Assembly (NCBI GenBank): GCA_026416035.1
Contig: JAOAFY010000003.1
Span: 1-53,937, forward strand
From: Coriobacteriia bacterium
GTDB lineage: Bacteria; Actinomycetota; Coriobacteriia; Anaerosomatales; Anaerosomataceae
Length of the DNA: 53,937 nucleotides
Direction of reading: 5' to 3'
Within the stretch, counting starts at the first letter, position 1. Each line of letters begins with the position of its first letter. The notes under the pieces are model-generated. The model had not been told where the DNA came from, did no database searches, and worked only from the letters and a program-made list of their open reading frames with translations. Below, piece by piece: positions 43,194-53,937 of this stretch. The translations under genes were made by a program, and so were the position numbers.

Positions 43194-44231
43194 ATGCACC
43201 GAGCACCGACGCACCTGCGCATCCTCGCGTGCATCGCCGCCTGCGCCTGCTTCGTGCTGAGTGCGGGTGCGGCAGCGGCGATCGCTCAGGACTACGTCTC
43301 CCGCGACGTCCTCGCGCCCGGGTCGGCGGTAGCGACCACCTCGGTGGGCGGCATGAGGCTCAGCGAGGCCAAGCAGGCGATCGAACGAGATCTCGCTGCC
43401 TCGTTCGGGCAGACCATGACCGTGATGGCCGGACAGCGCACCGTGCAGGTGCAGCCGTCACAGTTCCTGCGCGTAGACCTCGCCCGGACGTTGGGAAGCC
43501 TCGCGCAAGCCAAGGGCCGGACGCCTACGGCGCGCAGGCTGCTGGCTCAGGCCACCGGCGCACCGTACGGTACCAAGGTCCCTCCGCAGATCGCCGTCGA
43601 CCGCGCCGCACTCGATGCGTGGGTGGCTACCCTCGCGGCGTCGGTGGGGACCCCGGCTTCCGATGCCACACTCACGGTACAGGACCGTCAGCTCGTGGCG
43701 ATCCCTGAACGGGTAGGCTTCTCCATCGACCCTCGCAAGGCCGCAGACGCAGTGGCTGTGGCACTGGCACGCGGAGACGACAGCGTCCGTCTCCCCGTCA
43801 CCCGGATCGAGCCGAAGGTCACGCGCGAGGACCTCGGCATGGCGATCCTCGTCAGACGGGCCGACCGTCGGCTCTTCCTCTACGAAGACGGCAGGCTCGT
43901 GAAGGTCTATCGCGTTGCGGTCGGCGCGCCTGGCTTCCCGACGCCTCGAGGTCGCTGGACGATCGTCCGAAAACGCTACATGCCGACGTGGGGAAACCCG
44001 GGGTCGGACTGGGCGAAGGACATGCCTCGGTTCATCCCGCCCGGACCGAACAACCCCCTCGGCACGCGCGCTTTGGACCTGAGCGCGCCGGGAATCCGCA
44101 TCCACGGCACGAACAAGGACTACTCGATCGGTCAAGCGGCCTCGCACGGTTGCATGCGGATGCACCGCTGGGACATCGAAGACCTCTACGACCGAGTGCC
44201 GGTCGGCACACCCGTGTTCATCATCGACTGA
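43194..44231 (+). CDS. L,D-transpeptidase family protein with N-terminal PG-binding region
   Basis: Signal peptide; RRLFLYE..YRVAVG..TPRG, NPLGTRAL, IRIHGT, SHGCMRM. Confidence 0.93.
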   Translation: MHRAPTHLRILACIAACACFVLSAGAAAAIAQDYVSRDVLAPGSAVATTSVGGMRLSEAKQAIERDLAASFGQTMTVMAGQRTVQVQPSQFLRVDLARTLGSLAQAKGRTPTARRLLAQATGAPYGTKVPPQIAVDRAALDAWVATLAASVGTPASDATLTVQDRQLVAIPERVGFSIDPRKAADAVAVALARGDDSVRLPVTRIEPKVTREDLGMAILVRRADRRLFLYEDGRLVKVYRVAVGAPGFPTPRGRWTIVRKRYMPTWGNPGSDWAKDMPRFIPPGPNNPLGTRALDLSAPGIRIHGTNKDYSIGQAASHGCMRMHRWDIEDLYDRVPVGTPVFIID

Positions 44232-44475
44232 GATCGCCCGGGACGCGATCCTCGATCTCGACGCGACCCGTCCACGCGATGCCGGACGCCGAAAGGACCG
44301 ACTCCGTACGCTCCGCGTCTTCCAGCGCCGTCCTGACGGCGATGCCGCACAGCGCCCCCAGAGACTTCGGGGTAGGCACGGCCGCAACGGGAATCCCCGC
44401 ATCGGCAAGCGCCTTCTCGGCAGCCAGAGCATCGTGGGTCGTCCCGAACCCATACACGACGAAGCGGAGCATCAC
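44221..44475 (-). CDS. DUF3343 protein (putative S/Se carrier)
   Basis: F.TTHDALAAEK.L...I....VPTP..L...CGIAVR; start overlaps the desulfurase stop. Confidence 0.85.
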   Translation of the reverse strand: MMLRFVVYGFGTTHDALAAEKALADAGIPVAAVPTPKSLGALCGIAVRTALEDAERTESVLSASGIAWTGRVEIEDRVPGDLSR

Positions 44476-45626
44476 GCCTGGCACACCTCGCGCACGGCCT
44501 CGACCGCCCGCTCCACGTCGTCTTCGGTCACACCACGGCCCACGCTGAAACGGACCGCGCCCGTCTCAAGCGTTCCAGCCGAAGCGTGTGCCGCTGGCGC
44601 GCAGTGCAGTCCTGAGCGGACTGCGATGCCGAAGCGCGAATCGAGTTCGTATGCGATCCGGTCCGGTTCGACCGACTCGTGGATGATGCTGACGACCGGG
44701 GCCCGCTCTTCGCCGGGAGCCGGTCCGAGCACGGCAATCCCGGGGACTTCGAGCAGTCCGTCCACGAGCCTCTGCACGAGACGCCGCTCGTGCGCCATGA
44801 TCGCATCCAGCTCGCGCGCGAGCACTCCCACGCCTGCCGCGAGTCCCGCGATGGCGGGGACGGGAGGGGTGCCTGCTTCGTAGCGATCCGGGCGTGCGTC
44901 AGGCATGGCAGGCGAGACCGACTCCCCTCCGCTTCCGCCCTGGACCAGCTCGGGCAGCTCAAGACCCGGTGCAAGGTACACCACGCCGACGCCCTGGGGT
45001 CCCAGCAGCCCCTTGTGGCCGGACGCCACGTAGACGTCCGCGCCGAGAGCTCGCACGTCGACACGCAGGTGTCCGGCCGCCTGGGCTCCGTCGACCACGA
45101 GCACGGCACCGTGCTCGTGGGCGATGTCGGCCAGGTCGGCCACGGGCTGGATCGCGCCGGTGACGTTCGACGCGTGCTGGCACACGACCGCCTTGGTCTT
45201 GCCTGCCGCGATGATCGCCTCGGCCGCATCGAGGTCCACGCGCCCAGCGCCATCGACGGGCATGCGCACCACCTCCACGCCGTGTGCTTCGAGCACCGCC
45301 AGGGGCCGCATCACTGCGTTGTGTTCCACGCTGGAGATGACGACGCGATCACCGGCGCCAAGCAGGCCCTTGAGCGCCATGTTCAGGCCGAAGGTGCATC
45401 CCGGCACGAACAACAGGTCGCGAGCATCGCCCGCTCCGAGGAACGACGCCACTGCGCTTCGGGCCTCCAAGACGAGCCGCGCCGCCTCCAGTGCCAGCCG
45501 GTGCGCACTGCGATGGGGGTTGCCGCCCGCTGGTCCGAGCGCCCGCTTAACCGCCGCGAACACCTCGGGCGGCTTCGGCCACGACGTCGCTGCGTGGTCG
45601 AGGTAGATGATTCCATCGTGTGGCAT
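44472..45626 (-). CDS. Class V PLP enzyme, cysteine desulfurase/selenocysteine lyase-like
   Basis: YLDHAATSWPKP, GNPHRS, EHNAVMRPL, HASNVTG, DGAQAAG, GHKGLLGPQG (PLP Lys), YEAGT, RSGLHCAP (catalytic Cys). Confidence 0.92.
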   Translation of the reverse strand: MPHDGIIYLDHAATSWPKPPEVFAAVKRALGPAGGNPHRSAHRLALEAARLVLEARSAVASFLGAGDARDLLFVPGCTFGLNMALKGLLGAGDRVVISSVEHNAVMRPLAVLEAHGVEVVRMPVDGAGRVDLDAAEAIIAAGKTKAVVCQHASNVTGAIQPVADLADIAHEHGAVLVVDGAQAAGHLRVDVRALGADVYVASGHKGLLGPQGVGVVYLAPGLELPELVQGGSGGESVSPAMPDARPDRYEAGTPPVPAIAGLAAGVGVLARELDAIMAHERRLVQRLVDGLLEVPGIAVLGPAPGEERAPVVSIIHESVEPDRIAYELDSRFGIAVRSGLHCAPAAHASAGTLETGAVRFSVGRGVTEDDVERAVEAVREVCQA

Positions 45627-45629
45627 CCG

Positions 45630-46109
45630 CTATCCGTGCCCCCCGCCGGCCATCATCTCGACCGCGTGCTCCAACTGGTCCGCGACGATAGCGAATGCCT
45701 GCCGAACCGCTTTCTCGCTGCCAGGGAAGTTGATGATGAGCGTCTTGCCCCGCTGGGCCGCGACGCCGCGGGACAGCATCGCGCGCCTCGTCGTTGCAAG
45801 GCTCTCGGCGCGGATCGTCTCCGCGATTCCCGGCACTGCCCGCTGCGCGAGCGACATCGTCACCTCCGGGCACACGTCCCGTGGCCCAAGGCCGGTGCCG
45901 CCCGTCGAGAACAGGACGTCCACCTCGTCCACGTCGCACATCTCCGTGATGGCGAGCGCGATCGCCTCCGCTTCGTCCGGCACGACGTGGTATGCAGCCA
46001 CGAGCCATCCGCGGCTCTCCGCGAGCTCGATCAGCGCCTTGCCGGACGTGTCTTCAGCTTCGCCGGCTGCACGCGTGTCAGAACACGTGAGCACCCCGAT
46101 CCTGAGCAC
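45630..46109 (-). CDS. mogA: Molybdopterin adenylyltransferase MogA/MoaB
   Basis: LTCSD, EDTSG, STGGTGLGPRDVCPE, LSRGVA, NFPGS. Confidence 0.92.
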   Translation of the reverse strand: MLRIGVLTCSDTRAAGEAEDTSGKALIELAESRGWLVAAYHVVPDEAEAIALAITEMCDVDEVDVLFSTGGTGLGPRDVCPEVTMSLAQRAVPGIAETIRAESLATTRRAMLSRGVAAQRGKTLIINFPGSEKAVRQAFAIVADQLEHAVEMMAGGGHG

Positions 46110-46583
46110 CTAGGCCTCCCCAAGACGTTCGACCGCAACCGTGTCACCGACGCGCACCGTACCACCACGCCTGACCACTGCGAAGATGCCCTCCCGGGGC
46201 ATCACGCAGTCGCCTGCCTGGTAGAAGATCGCGCACTTCGTGTGGCAGACCTTCCCGATCTGGCTCACTTCGAGCACCGCGTCCTCGCCGATCCGGAGAA
46301 CCGTTCCCACCGGAAGTGAAACCAGGTCGATGCCCTCAGTCGTGATGTTCTCCGCAAAGTCGCCGGCATCCACGTCCAAGCCTTTGGCCCGCATGTAGTC
46401 GATCGACTCCCGGGCAAGCAGGCTCACTTGGCGGTGCCAGTCGCCTGCGTGCGCATCGCCTTCGAAGCCGTGGCCTTCACGCAGCACGCCTTCTTCTCCC
46501 CGCGACTTACGGACCGTCTTGCGTTCCGAGAGGTTGACTGAGACGACGGTCCCTCTGGGGAGCGCATGTGCCGTCTCGCTCAC
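46110..46583 (-). CDS. Stand-alone MOSC-domain protein
   Basis: [49 protein letters not shown]; GTG start overlaps the moaC stop. Confidence 0.92.
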
Positions 46584-47065
46584 CTCGACTCCTCTCTGAC
46601 GAAGCGGCCGGATGCGCCGCCTTCCTTCTCCAGAAGCATGACGTCCGTGACGACCATGCTGCGGTCGACGGCCTTGCACATGTCGTACACCGTGAGCCCC
46701 GCGACGGCGGCCGCCGTCAGCGCTTCCATCTCGACGCCTGTCTTGCCGTCCGTCTCGGCGGTCGCAGTGATGACGATGGCAGAGTACTCGGGCTCGAGGT
46801 CGACTGCGACGTGCGTCAGCGACAGCGGGTGGCACATCGGGATGAGGGCCGCAGTCTGCTTGGCCGCCATGATGCCCGCTATCCTCGCCGTGGCCAGCAC
46901 GTCGCCCTTCGGAGCCGTGCCGCCGAGGATCATCTCCAGGGTCGAGGGCTCCATCAACACCTTCGCCTGTGCGACTGCCCGTCTGTGCGTCACCGGCTTG
47001 CCGGACACATCCACCATGCGCGCCGCTCCGCGCTCGTCGATGTGCGTGAGCTTCTTGTCTTCCAT
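46580..47065 (-). CDS. moaC: Cyclic pyranopterin monophosphate synthase MoaC
   Basis: [47 protein letters not shown]. Confidence 0.96.
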
Positions 47066-47066
47066 C

Positions 47067-48092
47067 TCACCCTCCGATCTGCGACATGCGCCGGATGGTG
47101 CCGACGCGCATGTTGTGGTGCTCTGGCTTCGCAGCCAGCGCACGCTCGATCAGCGCCCGCACTGCGTCGTCGTCGCCGGTACGCAGAACGCTGCGGGCAT
47201 CCAGCTCGTCGTCCGAGAACAGACAGGTGCGAAGCCGGCCGTCCGCCGTCAGACGCAGACGGTTGCACTCACCGCAGAAGTGGTGCGAGAGCGGCGAGAT
47301 GACGCCGAGCGTGCCCGCCGCGCCGTCGAACCGATAGTACCGCGCAGGCCCCCATCCGCCGGGCGCCTCCTCGCGGGAGACCGCCTTCAGCTCGCCGAAT
47401 CCCGCTGCAGCACCCTCTGCGGCGAGGCGTGCAAGGATCTCGTCCGAGGGAACCTCGTCTTCGATCGTCCAGCCGTCTGCCTCCGCGCCGCCGCACACGG
47501 TCCCATCGTCCGCACCGCCGACGGGCATGTATTCGATGAACCGCACGTGGACGGGCCGCTCGAACGTCATCCGAGCGAAAGCCGCGAGGTCCTGATGCAA
47601 GCGCCGCACGACCACGACGTTGAGCTTCACCGGATCCATGCCGGCATCGAACGCCGCGTCAAGCCCTGCGAGCACCTCCGACAGCCGGCCCCCTCGGGTG
47701 ATGCGGGCGAAGACGTCGGGGTCGAGGGTGTCGAGCGAGACGTTCACCCGTCGGAGCCCCGCAGCGGCGAGTTCGTGCGCGTAGCGCGCAAGGAGCGTGC
47801 CGTTGGTCGTGAGCGCAATCGCCTCGATGCCAGTGACCTCCAGCAGGCGCCGCACGTGGCCGACCAAACCTCGCCTGACGAGCGGCTCGCCCCCCGTCAG
47901 CCTGATCTTCGAGATTCCCTGCCCTGCCGCAACGGCAGCGAACCGCTCGATCTCCTCGTACGTGAGCAGCTCGTCGTGAGGCTTCCAGGCGACGCCGCCT
48001 TCCGGCATGCAGTACACGCACCGCAGGTTGCACCGGTCCGTGACCGAGATGCGCAGGTAGTCGATCCGTCTGCCGAAGGAGTCAGTCGCCAT
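47067..48092 (-). CDS. moaA: GTP 3',8-cyclase MoaA
   Basis: [50 protein letters not shown]-terminal MSQIGG. Confidence 0.97.
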
Positions 48093-48612
48093 CTCGGACT
48101 CCTCGGAGGAACTCGCGCTCGACGAAGTCGGCGAGAGCGACGCGGTCGCCGAGCGAGAAGCGCGGCACGCCTGGCGCGTCGATGCCTTCATCGTCGGTCA
48201 CGATAGCGACGAGCTCGGACGGGGCGCTGATGAGCTCGCGCGAACGCGCGCGCCGCACGACCTCGATACGCACGCGCGCCGTGCGCTTGAAGCCCTCGGT
48301 CACGAGGAGGTCGCATCCTGCACGCTCGGCCTCCGCCGCGATATCGTCGAGCGAGAGCTCCTCCTCGAGGCGCCGAATCGTCACCAGCTGCGAGGGCGAC
48401 GCGACCATCACGACGCGCGCCCCGGCGCGTGCGTGACGCCACGAGTCCTTGCCCGCCACGTCGATGTCGACTTCGTGTGCGTGATGCTTGCATGTGGCGA
48501 CCACGTACCCGCGCGCAGCGAGCTCGGCGACCACGCCTTCGAGCACGGTGGTCTTGCCGACATCGCTCTTGCCGACGATCGACACGACCGGTATGCCTGG
48601 TGCGCTGCTCAC
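48082..48612 (-). CDS. mobB: Molybdopterin-guanine dinucleotide biosynthesis protein MobB
   Basis: GKSDVGKTT, KHHAHEVDID..GKDSWRH, LVTEGFK. Confidence 0.92.
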   Translation of the reverse strand: MSSAPGIPVVSIVGKSDVGKTTVLEGVVAELAARGYVVATCKHHAHEVDIDVAGKDSWRHARAGARVVMVASPSQLVTIRRLEEELSLDDIAAEAERAGCDLLVTEGFKRTARVRIEVVRRARSRELISAPSELVAIVTDDEGIDAPGVPRFSLGDRVALADFVEREFLRGVRDGD

Positions 48613-48613
48613 C

Positions 48614-48835
48614 TCAGAAGCACCCGAGGTCGCAGTTGACGACCTTCGCGCCCACCATGTCCGCGGCAGCCCCGGCGACCTTGTACGGCACGCCGAAGTC
48701 CTCTGCCAGCTTGCGCAGCACCGGGCAGGTGATGCGACCGTCGGCGGCCTTCTCGCGCACCGCAGCTTCAAGCTCCGGCGTCACCCGTTCCGCCCAGCGC
48801 GGATCGATCTGCTTCGCTCCTTTGTCGGTGCTCAT
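48614..48835 (-). CDS. Small conserved Cys-motif protein ending in CDLGCF
   Basis: 73 aa, ITCP...LAE..GV....AG..AD..G.KV..CDLGCF; ATG overlaps the moeA stop (ATGA). Confidence 0.85.
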   Translation of the reverse strand: MSTDKGAKQIDPRWAERVTPELEAAVREKAADGRITCPVLRKLAEDFGVPYKVAGAAADMVGAKVVNCDLGCF

Positions 48836-50061
48836 GGCGTCCCTTCCTCCATGTCGAGACGGATGCACTCCACCACGCTTCCCTGCTCGAATCGCGACTC
48901 GCCCTCCGGAAGCACCAGCAGTGCGTTCGCACGATGCATCGAGGTGAGCATCGCGGACGACTGCGCGCCAGACAGGCGCGCCACGTACCCGCCCTTCCCG
49001 TCCCGTTCGACCCGGGCACGCAGGAAGTACCGGCGGTCCGGCTTCTTGTGCACGTCGTGGGCGAGCGTCACAGGATGGCGGGGGCGGTCGAGCGCCGTGT
49101 GTCCAGCCATCTTCCGCACGACCGGCCGCACGAACAGTTCGAAGCCCACCATCGTCGAGGTGGGATTCCCCGGCAGGCCGAAGAACGGCGTCGTGCCGAT
49201 GCGCCCGTGAGTCTGCGGTGCACCGGGACGCATCGCCACCTTCCAGAAGTCCATCTCGCCCAGGCGCTCGAGCACGCCCTTGACGACGTCGTAGTCGCCC
49301 ATGCTCACGCCGCCGGTGGTCACCATCAGGTCGAACTCCGGCGCCCGGGACAACAGCGCCTCGGTCGCGGCCGCATCATCGCGCGCGACGCCGAGCACGT
49401 GCGGCTCGCCGCCCGCAGCGATCACCTGCGCCGACAGCGAGTACGAGTTCGAGTTGCGGATCTTGCCCGGCCCGGGCTTCTCACCCACGTCTACCAGCTC
49501 GTCGCCGGTGGCGACGATTGCAACGCGCGGCTTCCGGTACACGAGCGGCTCGGAGCAGCCGACCGACGCCAGCAGCCCGACGGCGGCTGGCCCCACGACC
49601 TCGCCAGCGGACAGCACGACCTCGCCTGCGCGAACGTCCTCGCCCTTGCGCCTCACGTTCTCGCCCGGCCGCACCGCAGCGAAGATGACCGCCGTCGCTC
49701 CCCCGTCCTCCGCCCGCGTCCGCTCGACCATCACGACCGCATCCGCGCCGTCCGGGATCGGGGCGCCCGTCATGATGCGCGCTGCCTGACCAGGGCCGAT
49801 CTCACGCGAGGGGAAGACCCCTGCCGGCACGTGCTCGACCACCTCGAGCCGGACGGGCGTCGCCTCGCTCGCGTCGTGCACGTCAGCGGCTCGAACCGCG
49901 TAACCATCCATGGCCGAGTTGTCGAACGGCGCGACGTCGATGTCCGACACCACGTTCTCGGCAAGCACGCGACCGAGCGCCTCGACCAGCCCGACGCGTT
50001 CGGTCCCGAGGGGCACGATGCCGGCGAGCACGCGCTCGCGAGCCTCATCGACCGTGATCAT
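48832..50061 (-). CDS. moeA: Molybdopterin molybdo/tungsto-transferase MoeA
   Basis: PFDNSAMDGYA, RIMTGAPIP, TGDEL, NSNS, TTGGVSMGDYD, PGNP, SSAML; ATG 50061 overlaps the mobA-fdhD stop. Confidence 0.96.
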   Translation of the reverse strand: MITVDEARERVLAGIVPLGTERVGLVEALGRVLAENVVSDIDVAPFDNSAMDGYAVRAADVHDASEATPVRLEVVEHVPAGVFPSREIGPGQAARIMTGAPIPDGADAVVMVERTRAEDGGATAVIFAAVRPGENVRRKGEDVRAGEVVLSAGEVVGPAAVGLLASVGCSEPLVYRKPRVAIVATGDELVDVGEKPGPGKIRNSNSYSLSAQVIAAGGEPHVLGVARDDAAATEALLSRAPEFDLMVTTGGVSMGDYDVVKGVLERLGEMDFWKVAMRPGAPQTHGRIGTTPFFGLPGNPTSTMVGFELFVRPVVRKMAGHTALDRPRHPVTLAHDVHKKPDRRYFLRARVERDGKGGYVARLSGAQSSAMLTSMHRANALLVLPEGESRFEQGSVVECIRLDMEEGTP

Positions 50062-51464
50062 CTGGCATCCCGCCCTTCGACGACGCGATACGGGTTCGTG
50101 TACACGACCAACTTGCCTCCCCGCGCGTAGCCCACGAGTGTGAGCCCCACCGCTTCCGCGACGTCGGCGGCGAGGTCGGTCACCGCCGTGCGCGACACCA
50201 CCACGGGCACCTTCGCTTTTGCCGCCTTCACCGCCATCTCGTAGGAGATGCGCCCGGTCGTGAGCAGCACCGCGCCTTCGGTGCTCACGCGGTCGAGCCA
50301 CGCCCTGCCGAGCACCTTGTCGACCGCGTTGTGACGCCCCACGTCCTCTCGCACCAGCAGGACCCGCCCCTCTCGCGCGAGTGCGCACGCATGCACGCCG
50401 CCCGTGTCGCGATACAGCGCTGCTCCACGCGCCATCTGCCCGACGAGGTCGTACAGCTCGTCAGCAGTCACCACGGTACCGTCTGTCACCGCCTCCAGCC
50501 CGAGGGTGTGGCCGAGCGACGCGAAGGTCACCCCCTTGCCGCAGCCGGCGGTGATGTAGCGGCGCCGGTACACGAGGTCCTCGGGGACCGCTTCCGCGCT
50601 GCGGACGTAGACGAGTCCTCGCTTGTGATCGACGTCGATGCCCTGCAAAGCGTCCCGAACAGCGAGCAGCCCCTCGGAGACGAGGAATCCGACCGCCAGC
50701 TCCTCCAAATCCGCAGGCGTGGCCTGCACGGTCGCGATCTCGGCATCATTCATGTTGATCGTGACGGCCCGCTCGGCAGGCATGCGGCGGCCGCGTCGCG
50801 TCCCCACCTCGATCACGGCCGCGGGCGAGGTCGCCTGCAGCTCCTCGTGAGCTGACTCGCGCACCTCAGCGAGGTCCTCCGGCGTGTTCACATTCACGAA
50901 GCTCAGCAGGCCCGGGTCGACGGCGCGCAGCGTCTCGGCGTCGACCTCCCGAACGGCGAGGGCCGGGAACATGGCAACGAGGCGCCGCCGACCAGTCTCG
51001 AGCACGCGGCGGGCGTGCGGGAGGCAATCACGGTGGTACAGGGCGAGCAGCGGCTCCACGCCCTTCTCGGTGCGCGGGACCACGACCTGTGCGCCCTCGC
51101 GCGCGTCCCACAGGGCGCGCACGACCTCAGGGTTGAGCCACGGCATGTCGGCGGCGAGCGCGAGCACCCACTCGTCGGGAGCGTTCTTCAAGGCGGTGGC
51201 AAGCCCGCCGAGCGGTCCCTGGTACGCGACCTCGTCGATCCACACCTCCACGCCGGCAGGCAGCCCCGCGTCTGCCAGAGCCTCGGGACGGTTCGTGACG
51301 ACGGCGACGCGCTCGCACACCGCCGCAGCGGCTTCGGCGACCCGTGAGATCAGCGGCTCGCCGTCCACGAGCAGCAGCGTCTTGTCGACCCCCATGCGCA
51401 TCGAACGACCGCCGGCCAGCACTGCCGCGGTGGCCGGGATCCTCGCTTCTGACGCTCCCATCAT
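50058..51464 (-). CDS. MobA-FdhD fusion (Moco guanylyltransferase + formate dehydrogenase sulfurtransferase)
   Basis: N-half LAGGRSMRMGVDK, GPLGG, ADMP, EPLLALY, NVNTPED; C-half TPADLEELAVGFL.SEG, TAGCG, TGGVHA, EDVGRHNAVDKVLG, TGRISYEM; one continuous frame. Confidence 0.92.
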   Translation of the reverse strand: MMGASEARIPATAAVLAGGRSMRMGVDKTLLLVDGEPLISRVAEAAAAVCERVAVVTNRPEALADAGLPAGVEVWIDEVAYQGPLGGLATALKNAPDEWVLALAADMPWLNPEVVRALWDAREGAQVVVPRTEKGVEPLLALYHRDCLPHARRVLETGRRRLVAMFPALAVREVDAETLRAVDPGLLSFVNVNTPEDLAEVRESAHEELQATSPAAVIEVGTRRGRRMPAERAVTINMNDAEIATVQATPADLEELAVGFLVSEGLLAVRDALQGIDVDHKRGLVYVRSAEAVPEDLVYRRRYITAGCGKGVTFASLGHTLGLEAVTDGTVVTADELYDLVGQMARGAALYRDTGGVHACALAREGRVLLVREDVGRHNAVDKVLGRAWLDRVSTEGAVLLTTGRISYEMAVKAAKAKVPVVVSRTAVTDLAADVAEAVGLTLVGYARGGKLVVYTNPYRVVEGRDAR

Positions 51465-52570
51465 CCCGATGCCCCTTCGTGCGACGACGGCTCTTCCGCG
51501 ACGCGGACCGCCGTGGCCTTGAAGACTGCCAGCACCTCAGCACCCGGCGCAAGCCTGAGCTCCCGCGCCGCTGCCCTGGACACGCGCGCTGCAATCCGGA
51601 CGCCGGCGCACTCAAGGATCGCCCGGAACGTCACCCCCGCTGGCTCCAGCTCGCGCACTACGCAGGCAAGCCTGTTGCGCGCCGAGCTCGCAGGGACGTT
51701 CGCGCCCGCCTCGAACAGCACGACGTCTTCGGGACGGACCCCGAGGCGCACTCGCGCGCCCGGCTCGACCGGAGCGACGGCGAAGAGATCGACGCCCTCG
51801 CACACGATGCGCGCCACGCCTTCTTCGACCTCCGCGACGACCCCCGCCACTGGCGCCTCCAGCCCGAGGAAGCCGGCGGCCCACGGATCGCCGGGCACGA
51901 GGAACACGTCGTCCGCCGGCCCGCTCGCGACGATGCGTCCCTCTCGCATCACGGCGACGTCGTCGGCGACGAGCGCGGCTTCGTCGTGGTCGTGCGTGAC
52001 CCACAGCACCGTCATGCCGTCCTCGTGCAGCAGCCGCGCGAAGTCCTGCGCAAGACGCAGCTTGACGACCGGGTCGAGGGACGCGAGCGGTTCGTCCAGC
52101 AGCAGCACGCGCGGCCGCACGGCGAGCGCCCGAGCCAGCGCAACCCGCTGCGCCTCCCCACCCGAGAGCGCAAGCGCCGAGCGGTCTTCCCATCCGCCAA
52201 GGCCGACCCGTTCGAGCGCCTCGGCCACGCGGCATCGCCAATCCGCGGTCGGAAGCCCCCTGAGCGCGAGCCCGTATCCGACGTTCTCGCCGACGGTACC
52301 CTTGAACAGCCAGGGGCGCTGGAACGCAGCCGCGATCTGCAGACGGGCCTTCCGATCGCCCGCGCTGACCTCGCGGCCGTCGAACACGATGCGGCCCGCA
52401 TCAGGCCGCTCCAGGAGCCCGAGCACCGCGAGGAGCGTCGACTTGCCTGCGCCGGAGGGGCCGAGCAGCGCCACCGTCCGGCCGGCTTCGAGCGCAAGCC
52501 GGTCGACTGCGAGCACTTCTCGCCGCCGGTAGGACTTCCGGATGCCTTGCGCTTCGAGCACCGCGCTCAT
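51461..52570 (-). CDS. tupC: Tungstate/molybdate ABC transporter ATPase with TOBE domains
   Basis: GPSGAGKST, LSGGEAQR, LLLDEP, VTHD, C-terminal TOBE; ATG 52570 overlaps the permease stop. Confidence 0.88.
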   Translation of the reverse strand: MSAVLEAQGIRKSYRRREVLAVDRLALEAGRTVALLGPSGAGKSTLLAVLGLLERPDAGRIVFDGREVSAGDRKARLQIAAAFQRPWLFKGTVGENVGYGLALRGLPTADWRCRVAEALERVGLGGWEDRSALALSGGEAQRVALARALAVRPRVLLLDEPLASLDPVVKLRLAQDFARLLHEDGMTVLWVTHDHDEAALVADDVAVMREGRIVASGPADDVFLVPGDPWAAGFLGLEAPVAGVVAEVEEGVARIVCEGVDLFAVAPVEPGARVRLGVRPEDVVLFEAGANVPASSARNRLACVVRELEPAGVTFRAILECAGVRIAARVSRAAARELRLAPGAEVLAVFKATAVRVAEEPSSHEGASG

Positions 52571-53274
52571 GATCGCTCGAACCTCTCGGCAGAACGCTGG
52601 ACGCGCGCCAGCACAGCGTTGACCGCTACGACCAGGGCGAGCAGCACCGCCGAGAGCGCGAGCGCCGGTCCGTAACGGCCCATGCGCGTGTACTGCACGA
52701 TCGCCGTGGTCATCACGCGAGTCGAACCCTCGAGGTTGCCGCCGACCATCATGACGGCTCCGACCTCGGAGATCACCGCGCCGAAGCCCGCAGCGACGGC
52801 GGCGACCACACCCATGCGCGCCTCCTTGAGGACCAAGACCGCCTCGTGCCATCGCGATGCCCCGAGCGAACGGGCCTGCAGCCGCAGCTCGACCGGAACC
52901 GATGCGACCGCCGTGGCCGTGACGGCCGCCACCACCGGCATGGCGATGACCGCCTGGGCGATGACCATCGCCGGACGCGTGTAGAGCAAGCCGAGCGATC
53001 CGAGGGGTCCACGGCGCGACAGAAGCATCGCCACCACCAGGCCGACCACCACCGGCGGCAGACCCATCCCCGCGTTCGCCAGAACCAGGAAGACGTTCCG
53101 GGCGGCCCCGCGACGCATGCCCAGGTACAGACCAGCAGGGACACCGAGCACGAGCGCGACCGCGACCGCCGCGCCCGACACGCGAAGCGAGGTCGCCACT
53201 ACCTCCCACACGTCGACGCCGCCCGATGCAAGCGCCTGCACGCCCTCGCCGATCGCATCCAAGAACAGGTTCAC
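52567..53274 (-). CDS. tupB: Tungstate ABC transporter permease
   Basis: SLRVSG, MGLPPVVVGL, LSRRGPLG, LLYT..AMVIAQ, FGAVISEVGAVMMVGGN, TRVMTTAI. Confidence 0.9.
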   Translation of the reverse strand: MNLFLDAIGEGVQALASGGVDVWEVVATSLRVSGAAVAVALVLGVPAGLYLGMRRGAARNVFLVLANAGMGLPPVVVGLVVAMLLSRRGPLGSLGLLYTRPAMVIAQAVIAMPVVAAVTATAVASVPVELRLQARSLGASRWHEAVLVLKEARMGVVAAVAAGFGAVISEVGAVMMVGGNLEGSTRVMTTAIVQYTRMGRYGPALALSAVLLALVVAVNAVLARVQRSAERFERS

Positions 53275-53937
53275 GACCCGCCCCCTTCGGCATCCGGCAC
53301 GAACAGCGGTGCGCCGAATCGGTCGACTCCGAACCTGCCGATGAGCCGCTGGCCTTGCGGGCCGCATATCCACTCGACGAAGTCCCGTGCCCCGCGCTCG
53401 TTGCGCGCCCCCGCGACGGGGATGACCCCGTACTGGTTTCGCAGGGCCGGATCGCCCGAGAAGAGCACCGCCAGGTCGAGGGCGTCGCGCATCGCGGCGA
53501 ACGTCGCTTCGTCCGTCAGGGCGTACGCCTGCTTCTCTGACGCGATCTTGAGCGTCTCGCCCATGCCCTGTCCCGTGATGAGGTACCAGTCCCCCGCAGG
53601 CTCGCCCCCAGCCGCGGCCCACACCGCCCGCTCCTTCGCGTGCGTCCCTGAGCCGTCGCCCCGTGAGACGAACGCCAAGCGTGCGTCGCGGATGCGCTTG
53701 AACGCTTCTGCAGCCGACCGCGCCTGGCGGGTCCTGGCCGGGTCGTCTTGAGGGCCGACGATCACGAAGCGGTTGTAGCAGACCTGGCGTCGCTCCAGCC
53801 CGTGACCGTCTGCGACGAACGCGGCCTCCTGGTCCGGCGCGTGCACCAGCAAGACGTCGGCGTCCTTCTGACGGCCGAGGCGAAGCGCCTCGCCCGTACC
53901 GACGGCGACCACCTCGACCGACCACGCAGGATACGCC
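53271..53937 (-). CDS. tupA: Tungstate-binding protein TupA, 5' truncated by window edge
   Basis: VAVGTGEAL..DADVLLVHAP, YNRFVIVGP..DPA, FVSRGDGSGTH.KE, GQGMGETL, Y.LTDEATF, L.NQYGV. Confidence 0.9.
   Translation of the reverse strand, partial: AYPAWSVEVVAVGTGEALRLGRQKDADVLLVHAPDQEAAFVADGHGLERRQVCYNRFVIVGPQDDPARTRQARSAAEAFKRIRDARLAFVSRGDGSGTHAKERAVWAAAGGEPAGDWYLITGQGMGETLKIASEKQAYALTDEATFAAMRDALDLAVLFSGDPALRNQYGVIPVAGARNERGARDFVEWICGPQGQRLIGRFGVDRFGAPLFVPDAEGGGS

Follow-up and report, generated by a model that had tools for sequence, protein, structure and literature searches.

What does a cysteine desulfurase do at the end of an operon for molybdenum cofactor (Moco) biosynthesis, and does it handle sulfur or selenium? 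The question is raised by a 53,937-nucleotide stretch of DNA (hereafter the window; contig JAOAFY010000003.1, positions 1 to 53,937 of the forward strand) from a Coriobacteriia bacterium of the order Anaerosomatales (GCA_026416035.1; assembly of 1.58 Mb, 92% complete), whose genus also holds Coriobacteriaceae bacterium EMTCatB1. A tightly packed operon on the minus strand of this window ends at its 3' side with two genes, one for a 384-aa pyridoxal 5'-phosphate (PLP)-dependent cysteine desulfurase that also resembles selenocysteine (Sec) lyases (csd, 44472-45626, minus strand; PF00266 and NCBIfam matches), the other for an 83-aa carrier-like protein of the DUF3343 family (PF11823; 44221-44472, minus strand). 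Our preferred answer, to which we give about an even chance, is that the pair is a dedicated sulfur donor, passing sulfur from csd via the DUF3343 protein to a MobA-FdhD fusion that would supply the Sec-containing formate dehydrogenase with its sulfido ligand.

The desulfurase and its small partner

Judged by its sequence, csd is a group II (SufS-type) class-V desulfurase of the TIGR01977 type. PF00266 matches it over its full length (E=1.2e-91, 307.9 bits, model positions 1-370 of 371). The best NCBIfam model is TIGR01977 (am_tr_V_EF2568), on which csd reaches 365.4 bits and narrowly misses the curated threshold (377 bits); relatives linked to selenium reach 368-471 bits on the same model. 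Trees rooted on SufS-like outgroups agree with this assignment, as the csd clade is nested among TIGR01977-scoring sequences of several phyla. A preliminary description of the window, made from the sequence alone, had expected this type and had named grouping with the SufS or IscS housekeeping clades as the outcome that would speak against its proposal; csd was found outside both. All housekeeping models score far below their cut-offs (SufS TIGR01979, 254.7 versus 475 bits; CsdA, 169 versus 494; NifS, 190 versus 531; IscS, 131 versus 643), so that csd is not a housekeeping SufS, IscS or NifS. Its closest relatives in the PDB are SufS and CsdA, and csd itself has a SufS-type fold (E=4e-53). The sufCB genes of this genome lie on another contig, away from csd.

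The key residues are in place, with the PLP lysine K205 (SGHK), the catalytic cysteine C342 (RSGLHCAP) and H102-N103. SGHK205, EH102 and RSGLHC342AP are invariant in an alignment of 13 sequences of the clade. Like other TIGR01977 (EF2568 type) enzymes, including Enterococcus faecalis SclA, csd has the same length, the RxGxHCA motif of group II and, as often in this type, a DUF3343 partner; compared by position numbers, PLP lysine and catalytic cysteine are nearly equally placed (K202/C341 in SclA). Unlike SclA, csd scores 314.3 bits on the SclA model NF040779 (cut-off 525), belongs to a separate clade in Moco operons rather than beside selD, yedF or yedE, and has Asn in place of SclA H100, the H99-H100 pair of SclA corresponding to H102-N103. 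The H100/D146 specificity position was considered as a discriminator and rejected, since Asn is found in both the Moco-linked and the selenium-linked clade of Coriobacteriia.

The DUF3343 protein scores 60.7 bits on PF11823 (Se_S_carrier; cut-off 25). An alternative GTG start at 44484 (44221-44484, 87 aa) is less likely than the ATG. The two genes of the pair are translationally coupled, as the DUF3343 ATG shares its A with the TGA stop of csd (TGATG), and csd itself starts 3 nt past the end of mogA (TAG-CGG-ATG), just as the preliminary description had it. The same description had called both a His and a Cys of the DUF3343 protein conserved. The protein has one of each: the Cys (C42) is indeed invariant in 26 DUF3343 sequences, together with F9, A15 and P35, while conservation of the His (H13) is restricted to DUF3343 proteins that accompany Moco-linked enzymes.

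The confident AlphaFold model of the DUF3343 protein (predicted local distance difference test score 91.5) shows a sandwich of beta-alpha-beta-beta-alpha-beta topology and places the Cys where strand 3 begins. In structure, this model matched generic folds (ferredoxin-like, ACT, PII, HMA and UreE-type; Foldseek E ~1e-3, template modelling score 0.55; VIA Z below 8), at the level of a common arrangement only. No TusA-like protein was among the matches listed, and a sequence-level match to L7Ae (E=0.57) was treated as chance. Like other group II (type II) desulfurases, csd probably depends on a dedicated partner to accept its persulfide, and the co-translated, one-cysteine DUF3343 protein is the likely acceptor and carrier. 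The arrangement resembles SufS-SufE, SufS-SufU and CsdA-CsdE in combining a SufS-type fold with a small co-translated partner that has a single, essential-looking Cys. It differs from them in that DUF3343 is unrelated to SufE, SufU and CsdE by predicted fold, and in that no sufBCD genes are nearby. Persulfide or perselenide carriage has never been shown for any PF11823 member (PMC5322559).

A clade apart from the selenium genes

Across the class Coriobacteriia, 151 genomes were compared; adjacency counts were read by eye from tables and are approximate. The csd-DUF3343 pair and its selenium association are already published (PMC5322559), and the statement of the preliminary description that both families recur near selD and yedF is borne out by the gene neighbourhoods and by Lin et al. 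(PMC5322559). The profiling against selD suggested there gave a divided answer. The family as a whole does track selD, as a TIGR01977-type enzyme was found in 111 of 120 selD-positive genomes and in 3 of 31 genomes without selD, with enzyme and selD lost together within several genera. For Coriobacteriales-type families, the distance between the enzyme gene and selD was 0.3-2.5 kb in about 38 of the 47 genomes sampled, the usual arrangement being yedF-csd-DUF3343-selD. The Moco-linked clade, in contrast, lies apart from selD. In Anaerosomatales, 64 of 68 genomes have the enzyme, about 60 of these 64 have it 0.7-2.3 kb from moaC, and selD is 25-73 kb away from csd. The order moaA-moaC-MOSC-mogA-csd was present in most of 25 fetched loci.

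Phylogeny separates the two contexts as well. Two trees, with 61 and 85 sequences, unite the Moco-linked enzymes in a single clade (Shimodaira-Hasegawa-like approximate likelihood ratio test support 96 and 100), apart from the enzymes linked to selD, yedF or yedE. The clade contains all enzymes of Anaerosomatales and those of three further families (f17, f19 and f21); in family f19, csd directly follows mobA-fdhD (L055, L057). It branches within a larger family that spans several phyla; the remaining members of this family, where their context is visible, adjoin selD, yedF, yedE or selA-selB, examples from outside the class being Sporomusa, Symbiobacterium, Fermentibacteraceae and Fischerbacteria. 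No Moco-linked member from outside Coriobacteriia was seen among the best 80 of 565 relatives. The DUF3343 partners of the Moco-linked clade have diverged in step with their enzymes.

Four genomes (G007, G031, G033 and G103) have both paralogs, one per clade and each in the matching context, with the selenium-linked copy beside yedE. In a fifth, G113, the second copy is a very long-branched desulfurase on a contig of 38% GC (C26:1-8182) in an otherwise high-GC genome; it probably reflects bin contamination or recent transfer, so that coexistence is less clear there, and it was omitted from the second tree. What is new here is thus the recognition of csd as a distinct paralogous clade, its coexistence with the selenium-linked form in single genomes, and a set of selenium-free and Moco-free test cases.

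These test cases are members of Anaerosomatales. In G030 (99% complete), selD is absent and none of the ten Mo enzymes has a TGA, but csd and one DUF3343 gene are kept. Its csd (within C1:128014-137135) stands between a 970-aa xanthine-dehydrogenase-family enzyme (Fer2, Fer2_2, MoCoBD_1/2) and a MobA/MocA-like nucleotidyltransferase, a context that is typical of sulfurated enzymes with molybdopterin cytosine dinucleotide cofactor. Conversely, G039 (100% complete) has selD, and neither MoaC, nor a PF00384 enzyme, nor csd. G129 was rejected as a further selD-free genome keeping csd, because its only formate dehydrogenase has an in-frame TGA and selD is probably just unassembled. G093 (99% complete) and G139 and G147 (each 90% complete) point the other way and are weighed below. 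Taken together, the test-case genomes favour a Moco-related, selenium-independent role, although the signal is mixed.

The preliminary description had left the choice between selenium (Sec lyase) and sulfur for tungsten or molybdenum (W/Mo) enzymes such as formate dehydrogenase. Of these halves, sulfur for formate dehydrogenase is favoured over the Sec-lyase half by the phylogeny, namely by the distinct clade in Moco operons, the coexistence with a selenium-linked paralog and the retention of csd in a selD-free relative. A corresponding history, in which a Sec-lyase-type lineage was recruited in an ancestor of these Coriobacteriia into a dedicated relay from csd via DUF3343 to (MobA-)FdhD that furnishes the formate dehydrogenase cofactor with its terminal sulfido ligand, is plausible, but we place it somewhat short of an even chance.

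Proposed destination of the sulfur

In the proposed relay, csd would mobilize the sulfur of L-cysteine as a persulfide on C342 and pass it to C42 of the translationally coupled DUF3343 protein as acceptor or carrier. From there it would reach the FdhD half of the MobA-FdhD fusion (50058-51464, minus strand) as the final acceptor and cofactor sulfurase, and FdhD would place the terminal sulfido ligand onto W/Mo-bis-pyranopterin guanine dinucleotide (bis-PGD) for the genome's only molybdopterin oxidoreductase, the Sec-containing formate dehydrogenase. Thiocarboxylation of MoaD may be a second sink for sulfur. Both transfers, from csd to DUF3343 and from DUF3343 to FdhD, are inferred, as is the use of Cys rather than Sec.

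For formate dehydrogenases, FdhD is the known sulfurtransferase between a cysteine desulfurase and bis-PGD (PMC13653126), and its counterpart here, matched with 249.9 bits, is encoded in the same operon as csd. Precedents for desulfurase-to-chaperone sulfuration of Moco are IscS-FdhD, NifS4-XdhC and ABA3 (PMC13653126, PMC2997495). Sulfido ligand transfer to formate dehydrogenase cofactors is only partly understood and is known mainly from IscS-FdhD of Escherichia coli, and its mechanism is still called unproven (PMC13653126). The present system shares with that relay a desulfurase, FdhD and a Sec-containing bis-PGD formate dehydrogenase, with csd and FdhD in one operon here. It differs in that the donor would be a dedicated group II enzyme rather than IscS, that a DUF3343 carrier may intervene, and that FdhD, here joined to MobA, carries a single loop Cys where that of E. 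coli has two.

The genome offers a suitable client. It has exactly one PF00384 enzyme, a formate dehydrogenase of 1171 aa with one in-frame TGA. An aldehyde:ferredoxin oxidoreductase gene, followed by moaD (ThiS family) and a ThiF/MoeB gene, is found on a short contig (C80:1-2131), and moaE (L019:4857-5234) follows metH and the methylenetetrahydrofolate reductase gene on contig C65. The genome thus encodes the step from cyclic pyranopterin monophosphate to molybdopterin in the conventional way, and this speaks against another route of dithiolene synthesis in the operon of the window.

Several observations weigh against this relay. The FdhD loop (TAGCGKG) keeps the first Cys of the two-Cys motif of E. 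coli FdhD and lacks the second. DUF3343 lies directly 3' of csd in 16 of 31 loci of the Moco clade; where it is not adjacent, the genome has a DUF3343 gene at another place. The clade itself descends from a selenium-linked family, and group II desulfurases usually use both Cys and Sec. G093 keeps csd-DUF3343 with neither MoaC nor a PF00384 enzyme found, and G139 and G147 have moaC-MOSC and no csd, so that the enzyme appears dispensable for Moco in some relatives. Finally, most Anaerosomatales with selD have no other enzyme of the csd family, and csd could therefore serve SelD. The pair in G093 (within C45:4551-13065) is flanked by genes for a LysR regulator and a cytochrome b561-type protein, an unexplained departure from the usual operon setting.

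The argument about SelD leads to the alternative that survives best, to which we leave an appreciable minority chance. Here csd would be a selenocysteine lyase that frees Se from Sec, with DUF3343 as perselenide carrier and SelD as recipient, for selenophosphate toward the Sec-containing formate dehydrogenase; the location of csd in the cofactor operon would then be explained simply by one enzyme depending on both processes for its maturation. The genome uses selenium, as the preliminary description had presumed. A selD gene with in-frame TGA was found on contig C18, followed by selA and selB and with no desulfurase beside it, and a YedE selenium-transporter gene (L016:9119-10423, minus strand) matches TIGR04112 with 363 bits. 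Together with the TGA in the formate dehydrogenase gene and the lack of any other member of the csd family, this inventory speaks for a Sec lyase. The proximity of family members to selD in Coriobacteriales-type genomes, and in other phyla to selA-selB, yedE or yedF, points in the same direction, as do the joint losses with selD, the retention of the pair without Moco genes in G093, the role of DUF3343 as a known partner of Sec-lyase-type genes (PMC5322559), and the preference of the E. faecalis family member SclA for Sec (bioRxiv 10.1101/2020.02.07.939272). On the other hand, the Moco-linked clade never adjoins selD and in the order is separated from it by the distances given above, genomes with two paralogs keep the other one beside yedE, selD-free G030 retains csd, selD-positive but Moco-free G039 does without it, and the score on the SclA model is far from its cut-off.

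Close counterparts are the clusters of Sec lyase, DUF3343, YedF and SelD described by Lin et al. (2015), as in Slackia heliotrinireducens (Shel_25430/25440), a member of this bacterial class in which both protein families occur. Unlike in Slackia, where the pair lies inside the selenium gene cluster, the pair here represents a paralogous branch that has moved to the cofactor operon, while selD is left with a half-size YedF only. This 112-aa protein, encoded after selD (L015:5932-6270, minus strand), corresponds to the DsrE-like C-terminal half of YedF alone (TIGR03527 positions 86-194) and lacks the half at the N-terminus that resembles TusA. A second DUF3343 protein of 190 aa (L016:8350-8922, minus strand) is encoded directly downstream of the YedE gene and has a Cys-containing C-terminal extension of about 100 aa with no Pfam match.

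Sulfur from csd could also go to a cofactor held by the neighbouring stand-alone MOSC protein (46110-46583, minus strand; about 157 aa) instead of FdhD, in the manner of a split, bacterial version of ABA3/MOCOS, the Moco sulfurase of eukaryotes, which we regard as improbable. The MOSC gene lies two genes upstream of csd in an order, MOSC-mogA-csd, that is conserved in Anaerosomatales, its product has Cys at positions 113, 117 and 126, and in ABA3 a NifS-like and a MOSC domain are fused (PMC2997495). Both ABA3/MOCOS and NifS4-XdhC of Rhodobacter capsulatus are desulfurases devoted to sulfurating a Mo cofactor before insertion, as proposed for csd; a MOSC protein in the csd operon and a csd next to a xanthine-dehydrogenase-family enzyme in G030 add to the likeness. 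However, csd and MOSC are not fused, there is no XdhC, and no enzyme of the xanthine dehydrogenase or xanthine oxidase family was found by a PF02738 search of this 92%-complete genome, for which reason a selenium-dependent Mo-hydroxylase trait was also rejected. Moreover, the moaC-MOSC pairing is widespread in Coriobacteriia without the Moco-linked enzyme clade (for example G086, G098, G106, G139 and G147), and MoaC/MOSC fusions exist (NF011069), so MOSC tracks moaC and not csd.

A role as general housekeeping cysteine desulfurase, for iron-sulfur clusters and tRNA thiolation as well as any further demand for sulfur, is highly improbable, even though csd is the only strong Aminotran_5 match in the assembly and the SUF genes comprise a bare sufC-sufB pair without desulfurase, because the complete genome of EMTCatB1 (G003) has a nifS-nifU-mnmA cluster (within C1:1276000-1292000) and contig C64 of the present assembly starts exactly at the edge of this block. 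The missing block is thus an assembly gap, csd was rejected as the sole desulfurase of the genome, and inferences from "absent" iron-sulfur or thiolation genes are unsafe here. Since all 5 of 5 relatives checked carry both csd and a separate housekeeping nifS-nifU-mnmA cluster, csd is an extra enzyme.

The operon and its meaning

All genes of the operon are on the minus strand. At its head are the ATPase, with a TOBE domain, and the permease of an ABC transporter of the tungstate/molybdate uptake type (51461-53925, limits approximate). MobA-FdhD is followed by moeA (48832-50388), mobB (48082-48771), moaA (47067-48191) and moaC (46580-47143), with an 84-aa open reading frame (ORF) between moeA and mobB (48614-48868) that had no match among NCBIfam models. 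The MOSC start overlaps the moaC stop (GTGA), and mogA, a mogA/moaB-type molybdopterin adenylyltransferase gene directly upstream of csd (45630-46109), follows the MOSC gene immediately (TAG-GTG). A longer MOSC ORF reaching up to 46835 was rejected as a high-GC artefact.

The GC content at third codon positions is 0.80, which together with the same gene order in about 60 related genomes indicates real genes and not chance ORFs. Downstream, the DUF3343 gene has an 11-nt tail-to-tail overlap (44221-44231) with a convergent L,D-transpeptidase gene, which leaves no space for a terminator. The L,D-transpeptidase is a conserved downstream neighbour within the family of the organism. An Rfam scan of the operon found no riboswitch, and a promoter and terminator scan found nothing above background.

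If the relay from csd via DUF3343 to MobA-FdhD is true, bacteria would have in it an unfused equivalent of the eukaryotic Moco sulfurase, and the DUF3343 family would gain its first defined biochemical role. With the dedicated desulfurase, its small carrier and MobA-FdhD all encoded in one operon, the lineage would offer a clean, reconstitutable system that is relevant to the engineering of CO2-reducing W/Mo formate dehydrogenases. The selenium-linked and Moco-linked sister paralogs can be compared for what sets the choice between sulfur and selenium.

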